From Patescibacteria group bacterium (GTDB lineage: Bacteria; Patescibacteriota; Minisyncoccia; Phycocordibacterales; UBA9973), in assembly GCA_028865035.1 (NCBI GenBank), contig JAGWLB010000002.1, forward strand, positions 49,531 through 113,530: a stretch of 64,000 nt of DNA, given 5' to 3'. Every line of letters begins with the position of its first letter. The first letter of the stretch is position 1. The notes beneath the pieces are model-generated. The model did no database searches. It saw only the letters and a list, made by a program, of their open reading frames with translations, and was not told the origin of the DNA. The translations under genes and the position numbers were made by a program. This document shows, piece by piece, positions 134 through 14,452 of this stretch.

Positions 134-1015
134 ATGAAAAGAAATTTATGTTTATTAGGGTTATTCATCTGTATGATGTGTAGCACTACTGCCTTTGCAC
201 AACAAGTAGATCTTACTACAAGTAAAAGTTGCTTGAAATCTGCAACAGATTCCGCAATATTAACACCAACTTTTGCTGGATTTAGTTCTCGTATAAGTTG
301 GGAACTTCAAAAGTTAAATCTTGAATTTGGTAACTGGGATAGCATAGGAAGCCCAAACCTAATGCACTATATTGCTTCAGATTCAGCATCTGAGGCGTAC
401 AGAATTCAAGTTAAAGATTCTGCAACAAATGTAATAGCATTTTCAAACGCTATAATAATTTGCAGGTGTGGTGTTCTTCCCGTAACCCTTTCTTATTTCA
501 CAGGTTCGATAAAAAATAATGCCATAAATATATCCTGGGAAACAGTATCGGAGGAAAATTTCTTTCACTTTGAAGTGCAACGCAGTTTAGATGGAGATCA
601 TTTTTCTACAATTGAAGTTGTACCGGCCTCAGGTACTACTGATAATACTGTAGATTATAATGCCATTGATAAAAATATAAACAATAAGTATATATTTTAT
701 CGACTAAAAATTGTCGATAAAGATGGACACTACAGTTATAGCAATGTCATTGTAATGAGAATTAATGTTCCTCTTAATAAGAACATTATAATCGCTAATC
801 CTGTAGATGATCAAATTGCTATTATTTACAATGGTTTATTAGAACAGAACAAAGCTATTGTTCAACTATATTCTTTAGAAGGAAAAATATTAAAAAATCA
901 ATCCTTTGGAAACGGTATCGTTGATGTAAGCAATCTACCATCAGGGTTTTACATTTGTAGAATCATTGATAGTAAAGGAAATATTTTGTTTCATAAAGAA
1001 ATTATGAAACAATAA
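134..1015 (+). CDS. secreted protein with an FN3/Ig-like middle region and a C-terminal T9SS-type (Por) sorting domain
   Basis: N-terminal signal peptide (MKRNLCLLGLFICMMCSTTAFAQQ). The last ~70 aa (AIVQLYSLEGKILKNQSF...LPSGFYICRIIDSKGNILFHKEIMKQ) match the beta-strand pattern of Bacteroidota T9SS C-terminal domains. Confidence 0.6.
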   Translation: MKRNLCLLGLFICMMCSTTAFAQQVDLTTSKSCLKSATDSAILTPTFAGFSSRISWELQKLNLEFGNWDSIGSPNLMHYIASDSASEAYRIQVKDSATNVIAFSNAIIICRCGVLPVTLSYFTGSIKNNAINISWETVSEENFFHFEVQRSLDGDHFSTIEVVPASGTTDNTVDYNAIDKNINNKYIFYRLKIVDKDGHYSYSNVIVMRINVPLNKNIIIANPVDDQIAIIYNGLLEQNKAIVQLYSLEGKILKNQSFGNGIVDVSNLPSGFYICRIIDSKGNILFHKEIMKQ

Positions 1016-1070: not shown

Positions 1071-1189
1071 TGTGCGCCGGGAAGGAATTTCTCGCCCTAC
1101 GGTCGCTGGTACTTTTCTAAGATCACAGCTCTATAGAAAAGTCTTTCGAATCCTCCACGTAAGCAAAGCAGTTTGCTTACTCAGGCGCA
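1071..1189 (-). ncRNA. tRNA-like element of ~120 nt (degenerate duplicate of tRNA-Tyr with a divergent middle), bracketed by terminator hairpins
   Basis: The 20 nt at its 3' end are identical to the tRNA-Tyr 3' end (TTCCTTCCCGGCGCACAAGAGAAAA). 5' TGCGCC pairs with 3' GGCGCA like an acceptor stem. The interior has GGATTCGAAAG plus an extra hairpin (GTAAGCAAA/TTTGCTTAC). It sits between the hairpin+T8 at 1190-1215 and the hairpin at 1040-1070 on the minus strand. Confidence 0.4.
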
Positions 1190-1216
1190 AAAAAAACAGC
1201 CGAAGCTGTTTTCTCT

Positions 1217-1301
1217 TGTGCGCCGGGAAGGATTCGAACCTTCGTAGGCCGAAGCCGACAGATTTACAGTCTGTTGTAATTGACCACTCTACCACCGACG
1301 C
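1217..1301 (-). tRNA. tRNA-Tyr (anticodon GTA), 85 nt with a long variable arm
   Basis: The reverse complement folds as a cloverleaf: acceptor GCGTCGG/CCGGCGC, anticodon loop CTGTAAA, T-loop GGTTCGAATCC. Confidence 0.85.
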
Positions 1302-12398: not shown

Positions 12399-12484
12399 AT
12401 GGGAATATTATATCATAGATAATTGCGTTATTTGTCTATTTGGTGTATTTTAAAGAGGTATTAATAGGGGATAATAAAAACATT

Positions 12485-12555
12485 TGGGGATCGTCTAATG
12501 GTAGGACAGCGGCCTTTGAAGCCGTTAATTGGGGTTCGAATCCCTGTCCCCAAGC
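12485..12555 (+). tRNA. tRNA-Gln (anticodon TTG)
   Basis: Cloverleaf: acceptor TTGGGGA/TCCCCAA, anticodon stem GCGGC/GCCGT with loop CTTTGAA, T-loop GGGGTTCGAATCCC. Confidence 0.8.
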
Positions 12556-12716
12556 AAAGTGAGCCAAGCGAGATTTGCTTGGGGAAGAAAGTGCATTGCA
12601 CTTTCGCCAGGGATGAGAAGACCTTGAGTGTATCGCACGTAGCAAAGCAAGTACGATACGAAAGGCGTACTGAATCTGTAGGATTCGAAACTCCCTGTCC
12701 CAAAGCCAATAATTTG
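12556..12716 (+). other. structured ~160-nt spacer ending in a degenerate duplicate of the tRNA-Gln T-arm/acceptor 3' end (TAGGATTCGAAACTCCCTGTCCCAAAG); att-like scar or tRNA pseudogene
   Basis: Compare tRNA ...GGGGTTCGAATCCCTGTCCCCAAG with the copy ...GGATTCGAAACTCCCTGTCCCAAAG. Several hairpins lie in between (CCCCAAGCAAA/TTTGCTTGGGG; GTATCG/CGATAC). Confidence 0.5.
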
Positions 12717-12731
12717 TTTATAGTATTAAAT

Positions 12732-13121
12732 ATGAAAAAAGAAATAAAATTCACAGCTCTATTTGTAAAAGACATAAAAGATTTATTAAAAAGATTCCCT
12801 CCTAAGCATAAGAAAATTTTTGGACATCATTCAACGATTGAATTTCAACCAACTAGTCTAGATGGCATAGAAATAGGAAAAGAATGCAGTATAAAAATAA
12901 TAGGACGAGCTTGGGATGAATTTGGAGATGACCTTCTTGTTGAAAATTTAAAATCTAAAAATAAATACCCCCACATAACCGTGTCCCGAGCAGATAATGC
13001 TCCACCACTGTACTCAAAAATACTATTTGAAAAAACTGATATAGAATACTTTGATAATGAAGAAGTTAGGGTTATTGAAGGATATTCAGATGGGAATAAG
13101 TATATTACACAGAACCTATAG
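12732..13121 (+). CDS. small 2H phosphoesterase superfamily protein (LigT/CPDase-like, two H-x-T/S-x motifs)
   Basis: The GHHSTIEF and PHITVSR motifs are spaced ~60 aa apart. The ORF track begins earlier (12498), inside the tRNA; the first plausible ATG after the duplicated tRNA 3' end is at 12732. Confidence 0.5.
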   Translation: MKKEIKFTALFVKDIKDLLKRFPPKHKKIFGHHSTIEFQPTSLDGIEIGKECSIKIIGRAWDEFGDDLLVENLKSKNKYPHITVSRADNAPPLYSKILFEKTDIEYFDNEEVRVIEGYSDGNKYITQNL

Positions 13122-13237: not shown

Positions 13238-13876
13238 ATGGAAGAACAACTCACTAATTATATTAAGGAAAAGTACAATCCATTAGCCATTGTATTACAT
13301 GGCTCACGTGCAAATGGGTACGCAAAGGAACATTCTGATTGGGACTTTTTAATTTTTACATATAAAGATGTTAACCCCGCAAGAGATATTAAATTTGGTG
13401 CAAATTTTGAAATAAAGCAAGTAATACTTCCTTTGTCTGATAATAAAATTAAGGAAGGTCTTGGTTTTTTATTTAGGACCGAAAATATAAAAATATTATA
13501 TGATAAAGATAGTATTGTTCCTGCTTTGCTTACTAAAAATGAAATAGTAATTGAAAAAGGAGACACGTTCAATGAGGTAGATAAACGTGCTCGATGTGCA
13601 TTTTTAAAATCAAGTTTAGATAGTATTGAAGATTATAAAAATAATGAGTTAATTGTTTTTTCCAAAAAGGCAATATTTTATAATAAGGTTGTGCCTACGT
13701 GGTTTAGATTTCTTCATAACGAATTCAAGCCCTCAGATTATTTAGCTCTACCTCGAATTAAAAGTGATGATCCAGAATTCTATAAATTACTTGAGGAGTT
13801 TATTGATGCAGATGCTGAGCAATCAATTCTTATTGGAAACAAAATGATCAATCATATTTTCTCAGATTTAGATTAA
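13238..13876 (+). CDS. pol-beta superfamily nucleotidyltransferase with a C-terminal helical domain (KNT/ANT-like or MNT-HEPN-like)
   Basis: Motif LHGSRANGYAKEHSDWDFLIF (GS...D.D). A leaderless-type promoter (TGGTATAAT) ends 6 nt before the ATG. Confidence 0.6.
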   Translation: MEEQLTNYIKEKYNPLAIVLHGSRANGYAKEHSDWDFLIFTYKDVNPARDIKFGANFEIKQVILPLSDNKIKEGLGFLFRTENIKILYDKDSIVPALLTKNEIVIEKGDTFNEVDKRARCAFLKSSLDSIEDYKNNELIVFSKKAIFYNKVVPTWFRFLHNEFKPSDYLALPRIKSDDPEFYKLLEEFIDADAEQSILIGNKMINHIFSDLD

Positions 13877-13966: not shown

Positions 13967-14452
13967 TTAATCTTGGAATTTTTTGATTGCCTCGATTCTT
14001 ACAGAATCATCAAAAAATTCTTTTGGATTAATTATCCCGAGGTTGTCATCCACTAATTTAATATCAAGAGGTAAGACACCTGCAGTCGGAATAATTCCTC
14101 CGTTACCATCATCTGCACCAAACTTTGAAGAAATAAAATAAATAATTATTGTTTCTTCACCGCCGCATTGTTCAATCATGTAATTTACAATATTTATATC
14201 CTTGTTTGGCCATTTTTTTACCGGACCAATCATAATTATTTCAAAATTTTCAGGCTGATAAAAAAAATTACCAGGATCAGCATTTATAGGAAAATGAAAT
14301 TGTTTACCGGTCAAATCAAAATTTTTTGATTCACCATACCATTGTAACCAAACTTCATTACCATGTTTTTTTTCACGAAATAAGGTTGGTTTTTTTACAA
14401 TTTCTTTGCATGTTTGATGAACGGGCTCGCTCACTGGCTTAACTGTTTCCAT
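13967..14452 (-). CDS. hypothetical protein (161 aa)
   Basis: Intact ORF with no family I can recognise from sequence. Confidence 0.4.
   Translation of the reverse strand: METVKPVSEPVHQTCKEIVKKPTLFREKKHGNEVWLQWYGESKNFDLTGKQFHFPINADPGNFFYQPENFEIIMIGPVKKWPNKDINIVNYMIEQCGGEETIIIYFISSKFGADDGNGGIIPTAGVLPLDIKLVDDNLGIINPKEFFDDSVRIEAIKKFQD

Follow-up and report, generated by a model that had tools for sequence, protein, structure and literature searches.

What is the element that follows the tRNA-Tyr gene in the window analyzed here, i.e., a 64-kb stretch (64,000 nt) of contig JAGWLB010000002.1 from a Patescibacteria group bacterium? An earlier reading, made from the sequence alone, had described on the minus strand a tRNA-Tyr, a terminator, an element of ~120 nt and a second terminator, and had proposed for them either recurrent integration scars at tRNA genes or a family of tRNA-derived small RNAs. 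The arrangement was borne out by ARAGORN, by Rfam and by the sequence itself. The Tyr element is one copy of a large family of structured elements in ultra-small, Paceibacteria-type members of the candidate phyla radiation (CPR), a family that is absent from Rfam release 15 and that we have found more than 150 times in genomes and metagenomes of these organisms, in copies of ~110-175 nt. We consider it almost certain that this is a conserved structured family with arms templated on the tRNA. A covariance model, R1, was built from alignment A1, which holds 72 non-redundant copies of the common form (type 2) and none of the form found behind tRNA-Tyr (type 1). R1 matches the Tyr element over the full length of the model at 1070-1193 of the minus strand (40.0 bits, E = 2.2e-7). 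A second member, behind tRNA-Gln, scores 66.2 bits, this copy having been in the seed, and the R1 scan of the 64-kb window returned no match besides these two.

The tRNA-Tyr and tRNA-Gln loci

On the minus strand, the tRNA-Tyr(GTA) gene (1218-1301; ARAGORN; Rfam RF00005, 60.3 bits), which does not encode CCA and has its discriminator A73 at 1219, is followed by the trailer CAAGAGAAAA, a hairpin with U8, the ~116-nt element (1188-1073), a repeat of the trailer, and a second hairpin with a U run. The repeat finder detected an exact 24-nt direct repeat, TCCTTCCCGGCGCACAAGAGAAAA, at 1209-1232 and 1063-1086, with the copies 146 nt apart. It runs from the T-stem 3' strand through the acceptor 3' strand and the discriminator and includes 10 nt of the trailer. 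An exact repeat of this length at this spacing cannot be of chance origin. The duplication of the tRNA 3' end noticed in the sequence-only reading is thus exact over 24 nt, the first base of the 25-nt string given there being wrong. A consensus terminator scanner called neither of the two hairpins, and both were therefore taken directly from the sequence. The first, T1 (1189-1210, minus; AACAGC-TTCG-GCTGTT plus U8), parts the tRNA from the element, and the second, T2 (1033-1066, minus; inverted repeat I4), closes the element and is also the terminator of the convergent open reading frame (ORF) 134-1015.

Read 5' to 3' on the minus strand, the element begins with the acceptor part of its 5' arm, GCGCCTG (1182-1188), which in the sequence and the R1 alignment forms five of seven pairs with the CCGGCGC of both the tRNA-Tyr acceptor 3' strand and the 3' arm of the element. 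The branch hairpin hp1 (1159-1180; folding and R1), with a 9-bp stem and a CUGC loop, sits exactly at the acceptor/T-stem boundary of the arm. The T part of the 5' arm, GGAGGATTCG (1147-1156; inverted repeat I3), corresponds, as a reverse complement, to the tRNA T loop and T-stem 3' strand, and its pairing with the 3' arm makes up helices P2 and P3. Then come hp2 (1111-1142; ACUUUUC...GAAAAGU; folding and R1), the variable apical hairpin of a three-way junction, and hp3 (1093-1105; CGACC-GUA-GGGCG, from the sequence), the type-1 form of the family hairpin with the (U)GUA(A) loop. The 3' arm (1073-1092; 24-nt exact repeat) holds a degenerate T-loop remnant and then the copied T-stem 3' strand, acceptor 3' strand and discriminator of tRNA-Tyr. 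Both 5' arm segments, GCGCCTG and GGAGGATTCG, are complementary to the tRNA segment TTCGAATCCTTCCCGGCGC, in addition to the 24-nt exact copy. The acceptor-like pairing of the ends that had been proposed holds (GCGCC/GGCGC), and the interior contains the three hairpins just described where a single extra one had been seen. The segment GGATTCGAAAG, previously taken for a T loop, is actually the reverse complement of the tRNA segment TTCGAATCC and pairs with the 3' arm. In fact, the interior GGATTCGAA is the inverted copy of that same tRNA-Tyr segment (inverted repeat I3). T1 and the trailer form the center of a palindrome that reaches from the tRNA-Tyr 3' end into the 5' arm, and in the fold of the whole transcript the 3' third of the tRNA pairs with the 5' arm across T1. 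The folding z-score is -2.1 for the element alone and -5.8 for the tRNA plus the element.

The same layout recurs at tRNA-Gln(TTG) (12484-12555, plus; ARAGORN and Rfam), as the sequence-only reading had noticed, although the element itself lies at 12574-12705 and does not start at 12485. It is a type-2 member without hp4, recognized by R1 and by its direct and inverted repeats, and consists of a 5' arm (12574-12585 and 12608-12617), hp1 (12587-12605), hp2 (12622-12665), hp3 (12672-12686), and a 3' arm (12687-12705), all on the plus strand. The repeat finder detected a degenerate direct repeat of the tRNA-Gln 3' end downstream of the gene, and the start of the element, TTTGCTTGGGGA, is a 12/12 complement of that 3' end (perfect inverted repeat I1). 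No terminator intervenes between tRNA-Gln, the element and the ORF starting at 12732, and the Gln element would therefore be co-transcribed with tRNA-Gln.

Fold, arms and distribution of the family

The family core consists of hp1, the short helix P3 (UUCG:CGAA) with hp2 and hp3 inside it, and, in most copies, the mini-hairpin hp4, and it is flanked by two locus-specific arms. A typical copy starts with the U run of the tRNA terminator and a 5' arm that can pair with the acceptor 3' strand, the discriminator and the first bases of the trailer. There follow AG, hp1 (9 bp, loop CUGC) and CGU; the remaining 5' arm (..GGAUUCGAA), complementary to the T-stem 3' strand and T loop, and AGAC; the variable hp2, often with a tandem G.A base, and GUAC; and hp3 (5 bp, loop UGUAA), whose 3' strand repeats, together with the following GAAA, the GGUUCGAA of the tRNA. 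After hp4 (3 bp, loop UACU), where present, the copy ends with the copied T-stem 3' strand, to which ~40% of the copies add the acceptor strand, the discriminator and the trailer. Throughout the family, hp1 thus interrupts the 5' arm precisely where its T-stem and acceptor parts meet, and the loops UGUAA, UACU and CUGC are conserved in the alignment. The strand order is that of an acceptor strand, a body hairpin and a T-stem strand, and then the T-stem and acceptor 3' strands. The topology is tRNA-like, with an acceptor/T-stem helix, one body hairpin (hp1) in place of the D and anticodon arms, and a three-way junction that replaces the T loop.

The two copies of the window belong to different subtypes. 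Type 1, found 15 times and represented by the Tyr copy, lacks hp4 and has a GUA triloop in hp3; type 2 is the common form and includes the Gln copy. A third core type (GGATTCGAAC-GNCGGAG...GTGACC-GAATCC) that follows the same arm logic was observed at L016 (~120-330), L023 (~1-190), L030 (3380-3520) and L070 (1590-1690), and the 5' arm of the L016 copy is not interrupted by hp1. As L070 is a Zambryskibacteria metagenome-assembled genome (MAG), the arm architecture would be older than the type-2 core.

Covariation in the fold is strong. A model of 39 pairs in 7 helices was tested on the 72 type-2 copies of A1 after removing the variable interior of hp2. In the whole model, 88.1% of the cells are paired as compared with 68.7% in shuffles, and none of the 500 shuffles reaches the observed value. 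There are 575 cells with two-sided changes against 174 in shuffles, and the covariation score is 0.536 against 0.179, with the reservation, to be set against this evidence, that the shuffle control for covariation ignores phylogeny. Compensatory changes were found in 34 of the 39 pairs, and moving the 3' partners by 1-3 columns lowers the paired cells to 36-48%. By helix, the paired fraction amounts to 94% in hp1 (with all nine pairs compensated), 91% in P2, 92% in P3, 95.5% at the base of hp2, 99.7% in hp3 of the type-2 copies, 93.5% in hp4, and 67% in the outer acceptor helix, P1. RNAalifold, which was given no input structure, recovered hp1, P2, hp2, hp3 and hp4, with 22 of 25 pairs compensated. 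These results show that the secondary structure of the element is under selection.

Three features bear on the strand. There are 134 G.U pairs against 78 A.C pairs, the tandem G.A motifs of the alignment are confined to the tRNA-sense strand, and for 76 of the 91 copies the sense fold is more stable than the antisense one (by -3.0 kcal/mol on average; p = 1e-10). Taken together, the G.U excess, the sense G.A motifs and the folding energies favor the tRNA strand in single-stranded form, RNA being the simplest case, and we consider it probable that the element acts as a sense-strand RNA. The same G.U and energy asymmetries and the tandem G.A motifs disfavor a reading on the opposite strand, as a convergent gene sharing the terminator. 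What speaks against a sense-strand RNA is that in both window copies the antisense strand has a slight edge in folding stability.

The arms follow the neighboring tRNA. The last ~21 nt of the upstream tRNA, T loop through discriminator, recur in the 5' arm as their reverse complement, which continues into the trailer; the 3' arm is a direct copy of that 3' segment. The 5' arm shows a median of 1 mismatch in 15-16 nt with its cognate tRNA and of 7 with tRNAs of other anticodons, and of 59 copies, 45 match the cognate tRNA best. Perfect complementarity (15/15) holds in 17 of the 59, and 28 show no more than one mismatch. Unexpectedly, the 3' arm is less well kept and is often reduced to its T-stem part, which is nearly always retained (hence the P2 pairing given above), while the acceptor part has at most 2 mismatches in 15 nt in ~40% of the copies. 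Variants of the T loop can be followed three ways, in the tRNA, the 5' arm and the internal copy: TTCGAAT is accompanied by TTCGAA and TTCGAAA in 29 copies, TTCAAAT by TTTGAA and TTCAAAA in 11, and TTCGATT by ATCGAA and GTCGATA in one. The core, for its part, is independent of the tRNA species, with an identity of 0.81 among elements at tRNAs for the same amino acid and of 0.79 at different ones, and some cores, once the hp2 interior is trimmed, are identical behind Tyr and Ser tRNAs.

The terminator directly adjoins the 5' arm, with a U run before the arm in 47 of the 59 copies. The tRNA end, the terminator and the 5' arm form one long hairpin that extends, in the 59 relatives, a median of 10 pairs into the tRNA end, with up to 28 perfect pairs. 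In minimum free energy (MFE) folds of whole tRNA-element transcripts, the 5' arm pairs with the tRNA's own 3' third (z = -5.8 and -3.8), and the Tyr fold also joins the tRNA 5' acceptor strand to the 3' arm of the element. Since the 5' arm can pair with the tRNA end or with the internal copy, it has two alternative partners. At three loci without an element, located behind tRNA-Tyr or tRNA-Leu (L007, L010 and L062), the terminator palindrome reaches 5-8 nt into the tRNA 3' end, e.g., GTGCCGAA versus TTCGGCAC; these extended palindromes were left behind by lost elements or else reflect a general property of these terminators.

Relatives of the Tyr locus were retrieved with the neighboring ParB protein, for which no exact match is on record. 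The 71 loci obtained come nearly all from MAGs labeled Paceibacteria, Nomurabacteria or similar CPR groups, and in most of them tRNA-Tyr lies beside parB, followed in many relatives by the same modules as in the window and in others by none. R1 gave 20 matches at E <= 0.01 in these loci, all of them adjoining tRNA-Tyr except an internally deleted copy in L034. There is an R1 copy beside tRNA-Tyr in 18 of the 56 loci that have this gene, and types 1 and 3 add several. In nine relatives (L008, L011, L013, L024, L028, L030, L042, L051 and L053), tRNA-Tyr, with its element where present, is inverted relative to parB.

Beyond the parB loci, a 24-nt degenerate pattern from the best-conserved part of the element matched 94 metagenome stretches, and R1 gave 115 matches in metagenome loci. 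In the 94 stretches, the elements lie on the same strand behind tRNAs for Tyr, Ser (five anticodons), Gln, His, Ile, Leu, Pro, Val, Trp, Asn, Arg and Gly. A census of all the retrieved sequences with nhmmer yielded 175 matches, 128 of which have a same-strand tRNA no more than 400 nt upstream, representing 19 anticodons. Of the other 47, eight are at contig ends, several are behind genes missed by ARAGORN (e.g., the transfer-messenger RNA (tmRNA) gene in L100), and several are fragments of one copy. The strand is always that of the upstream tRNA or tmRNA gene. In this biased sample, an element follows roughly one tRNA gene in two and, among tRNA-Ser genes, roughly three in four.

Some loci deserve separate mention. 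In L100, the tmRNA gene (1-302; Rfam, 64 bits) is followed by a family member at 339-492 whose arms match the tmRNA 3' end, the 5' arm GTGTGGAAGTG being its reverse complement; thus, the element follows any gene with a tRNA-like 3' end. In L125 (~300-670), the 5' half of a tRNA-Val is joined to the 3' part of an element and then to two tandem elements, with no tRNA call by ARAGORN. In L159 (~1620-1830), as well as in L101, L155 and L103, the place of the tRNA upstream of elements with Ser-like arms is taken by a conserved GC-rich sequence ending in ..TTCGAACTTTGTCCA..ACACCGC, which neither Rfam nor ARAGORN recognizes.

Concerning the rest of the window, an isolated hairpin, UGAUUCUGUAAGAAUC (13994-14009, minus), has an hp3-like form and may be due to chance (R1, 12 bits, E = 0.86). 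The ORF 134-1015 (plus), which runs toward the Tyr locus, has at its C terminus a sorting domain of the Por_Secre_tail family (PF18962, E = 2.4e-8), a domain usually associated with type IX secretion in Bacteroidota. A 129-aa ORF (12732-13121, plus) that begins 26 nt past the Gln element contains two H-x-[ST]-x motifs (GHHSTIEF and PHITVS); its likeness to 2H phosphoesterases was seen by eye only, with no Pfam match, and this identity was rejected. It is followed by ORF 13238-13876 (plus), a Pol-beta-type nucleotidyltransferase (PF18765, E = 2.9e-9).

Function, mobility and other explanations

What could such an element do? RNA would be made from the tRNA strand, by co-transcription at tRNA-Gln and by read-through of the terminator at tRNA-Tyr. 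Its 5' arm would then choose between two mutually exclusive partners. Pairing with the 3' third of the tRNA, through the terminator palindrome, would produce a duplex of more than 25 bp, and pairing with the internal copy would produce a tRNA-like acceptor/T minihelix capped by the conserved junction. Either the minihelix or the long duplex might be offered to tRNA-processing nucleases, or might act as a mimic or antisense pair for that one tRNA, with the three-way junction serving as a binding platform for an unlinked factor. Recombination between the two direct copies of the tRNA end could lead to the loss or gain of the cassette, and a unit bounded in this way would show a patchy distribution for that reason. 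Of the explanations considered, we favor, at slightly less than an even chance overall and clearly less for this specific mechanism, a cis-acting, tRNA-specific module that would handle read-through precursors, or mimic and mask its tRNA, together with a junction-bound factor encoded elsewhere. A more far-reaching version, which we regard as doubtful, is that many tRNA genes each possess their own programmable RNA, with one arm as antisense or template and the other as mimic on a common protein-binding junction, for RNA-guided 3'-end processing, surveillance or templated repair of tRNAs, or for recombination at tRNA genes. We know of nothing like a tRNA-specific programmable RNA system in bacteria.

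Several observations weigh against a cis-acting module. Its main weakness is that 47 of 59 copies are separated from the tRNA by a strong terminator hairpin with a U run, leaving no space for a separate promoter, and at such loci RNA would therefore arise only by read-through. The Tyr copy is, moreover, enclosed by the bidirectional terminators of two convergent genes. The R1 scan found no element downstream of the tRNA-Lys and tRNA-Asn genes of the window, and as only some tRNAs carry one, an essential role in maturation is unlikely. The clustering of neighboring genes produced no candidate partner protein. Finally, presence at orthologous tRNA-Tyr loci is patchy, and truncated copies and tandem arrays of different core types occur; such features would suit a host function no better than a selfish cassette.

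This last explanation is the strongest rival, although we judge it rather unlikely. The unit, comprising terminator, 5' arm, core and 3' arm, would be a selfish, non-autonomous mobile cassette that a recombinase from another locus inserts at tRNA 3' ends, and its two arms, folded as a single strand of DNA or RNA, would rebuild the exact duplex found at the 3' end of the tRNA gene. It would account well for the finding that the same tRNA-Tyr/parB locus holds types 1, 2, 3 or none among close relatives, for near-identical cores beside different tRNA species, for several copies being possible within ~10 kb, for decayed copies (L026 and L034), and for the direct repeats of the target that bound the unit. 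Mixed-type tandem arrays, too, keep an intact unit next to the tRNA (L022, L076, L116 and L130), and their junctions resemble deletions at palindrome centers (TCCTACCCGG|GTAGGA in L076; TCCAACCCG|TGTTGGA in L116 and L130). However, about 40 nt of arms would have to be re-templated at each move, and we know of no mechanism that does so. The clustering of neighboring genes recovered only the synteny partners of tRNAs (ParB, RelA/SpoT-like and DNA topoisomerase I-like, named by eye), with no recombinase, transposase, reverse transcriptase or RNA enzyme enriched near the elements; two core patterns had no match in viral contigs, and BLAST found none to the elements in phage and plasmid records. 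A recent burst is unlikely, as no sets of identical copies were seen. Compensatory changes also occur between orthologous copies with shared flanks (hp1 of L021 versus L003), which argues for selection in place, and losses by recombination between the repeats, with gene conversion between copies, can yield patchiness without transposition.

A trans-acting guide or antisense RNA is improbable. Here the two halves of the 5' arm around hp1 would direct a protein encoded at another place to the cognate tRNA or its gene, which it would modify, cleave, repair or recombine, and the 3' arm would be an internal mask. That the 5' arm is the best-conserved arm and follows the cognate tRNA is in agreement with this proposal, as are the guide-hairpin-guide layout and the conserved junction, which recall known guide-RNA scaffolds, and the conservation of the loops of hp1, hp3 and hp4. 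The complementarity extends, nevertheless, into the 3' trailer, which is missing from the mature tRNA; a folded tRNA would need unfolding to pair; and neighbor-gene clustering revealed no linked candidate effector gene.

Just as slight is the chance that we are dealing with a functionless DNA palindrome, i.e., the terminator hairpin of the tRNA extended and kept perfect by template switching during replication, with the core as a passenger repeat. Template switching of this kind is known as quasipalindrome correction. The contiguity of the 5' arm with the terminator, its often perfect complementarity, the short extensions into the tRNA end at the element-less loci L007, L010 and L062, and the junctions of the arrays would all be expected from such a process. 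It leaves unexplained a conserved core with covarying hairpins of 3-9 bp and conserved loops, the sense-strand bias, and the maintenance of arm complementarity across the insertion of hp1.

As regards the two explanations of the sequence-only reading, the family of tRNA-derived small RNAs was right in substance, given the covarying fold, the tRNA-like topology and the templated arms, whereas recurrent integration scars found no support. Classical scars would be attL/attR repeats of an integrase-borne island or prophage that was later mostly deleted, and an intact tRNA followed by a direct repeat of its 3' end is what they would leave. But the data contradict them, and their probability is very low: more than 100 copies share an interval of constant size (~110-175 nt) and one and the same covarying core, no integrase, cargo or remnant lies between the repeats, and the inverted copy of the tRNA end is not predicted for an att scar. 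Besides, the tRNA-adjacent terminators of the window, L009 and L014 closely resemble the single terminators of the element-less L002, L053 and L058 (AACGGC..GCCGTT). One locus does resemble an integration: in L034 (480-2924), a 2.3-kb insert with a 669-aa ORF lacking Pfam matches parts an intact tRNA-Tyr from its old 3' end, an orphan GGCGCAC fragment, with its terminator and the internally deleted element. It is a genuine insertion into the tRNA 3' end, separate from the element family.

A decayed tandem tRNA duplicate or a cis-regulatory leader (riboswitch- or T-box-like) of the downstream gene, as the tRNA-like topology and 3' end or the position of the Gln copy 26 nt upstream of an ORF might suggest, has next to no chance in view of contradicting data: ARAGORN and Rfam did not call the Tyr element as tRNA or pseudogene (four true tRNAs only by ARAGORN, and no second RF00005 match in 950-1400 even at E <= 10), the core conserved across 19 anticodons cannot be explained by independent decay, the gene that comes next has the same direction in 47 cases and is convergent in 36, and the Tyr copy faces a convergent gene.

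Other identities were considered and rejected. Rfam 15 at the gathering score, applied to the window and 22 element loci, gave only tRNAs, 16S rRNA and tmRNA above threshold, and at relaxed E-values, in two regions, PyrR, rimP and similar matches far below the cut-offs; no element matched the Rfam 15 models of tmRNA, Y RNA, ribozymes, riboswitches, T-box, or group I and II introns. A repeat of the miniature inverted-repeat transposable element (MITE) or repetitive extragenic palindromic (REP) type does not fit, since the arms differ per tRNA, the repeat consists of 15-54 nt of the tRNA end, and there are no fixed terminal repeats. By eye, the hammerhead core CUGAUGA...GAAA is unmet, with CUGA varying to CAGA; the GAUGAGA/CUGA bases of a putative K-turn or C/D box are not conserved; and an H/ACA-like pocket lacks the lower stem and the ACA box. 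The hp3 loop CUGUAAG has a likeness to the tRNA-Tyr anticodon loop, but it is identical behind every tRNA species. Full-text searches of the literature brought up no description of such elements, and a 2026 paper on group I introns in Patescibacteria tRNAs concerns introns of the anticodon loop, a different matter.

Significance and known systems

CPR or Patescibacteria have tiny, streamlined genomes. If the element is an RNA machine, it would point to an unrecognized level at which tRNAs are handled, and this in organisms that now lack much of the usual machinery; as a mobile cassette, it would represent a new mode of targeting tRNA genes. In either case, these elements create partial tRNA duplications that can be mistaken for prophage att sites, and R1 provides a searchable marker for Paceibacteria-type genomes.

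Among known systems, TIGR-Tas (PMC12045711) shares with the family the presence in Patescibacteria and two short guide segments around a conserved hairpin. TIGR units are 36-nt RNAs in arrays of 5-15 with 9-nt spacers, beside a Tas gene with a Nop domain, each of their two spacers pairing with a different DNA strand (PMC12045711), whereas here there are single ~130-nt units behind tRNAs, without a recurrent neighboring gene, and both halves of the arm match one strand. Plant dicistronic tRNA-snoRNA genes, as represented by a reference listed in PMC12045711, are similar in that a non-coding RNA without its own promoter, set free by the enzymes of tRNA processing, lies directly 3' of a tRNA on the same strand; those RNAs are not known to contain a copy or complement of the tRNA, and in our family a terminator usually intervenes (47/59).

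A likeness in layout exists to the partial tRNA duplications left by integrases at tRNA genes (attL/attR), in which an intact tRNA is also followed by a direct repeat of its 3' end starting in the T loop or T stem. The family differs from them by the lack of integrase and cargo, the constant size of ~130 nt, the covarying core, the inverted copy, and the presence of the same core behind 19 anticodons. The attP(+) hairpin of the CTX phage mimics dif, and folded integron attC sites work similarly. Such sites have in common with the element two inverted copies ~100 nt apart that fold into a duplex target site, as well as the integrated order of direct copy, inverted copy, spacer and direct copy; in our case neither a phage genome nor a cassette ORF is present, the analysis identified no partner of the Xer or IntI type, and the conserved core is unlike attC.

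REP sequences and bacterial interspersed mosaic elements (BIME), Correia elements, Rickettsia palindromic elements and group IIC introns are likewise short, non-coding, hairpin-rich and multi-copy, and often stand beside terminators, but they have fixed ends, none copies a neighboring gene, and no group II intron match was obtained here. The tRNA-like domain of tmRNA, Y RNA (YrlA), viral tRNA-like structures and mascRNA share the acceptor/T-stem helix formed by the ends and a replaced body. In our family, by contrast, this helix is copied from the upstream tRNA and passes the discriminator into the trailer, a three-way junction stands for the T loop, and no Rfam model matches. To our knowledge, this is the only RNA or repeat family in which the ends are rewritten to the neighboring gene around a constant core.

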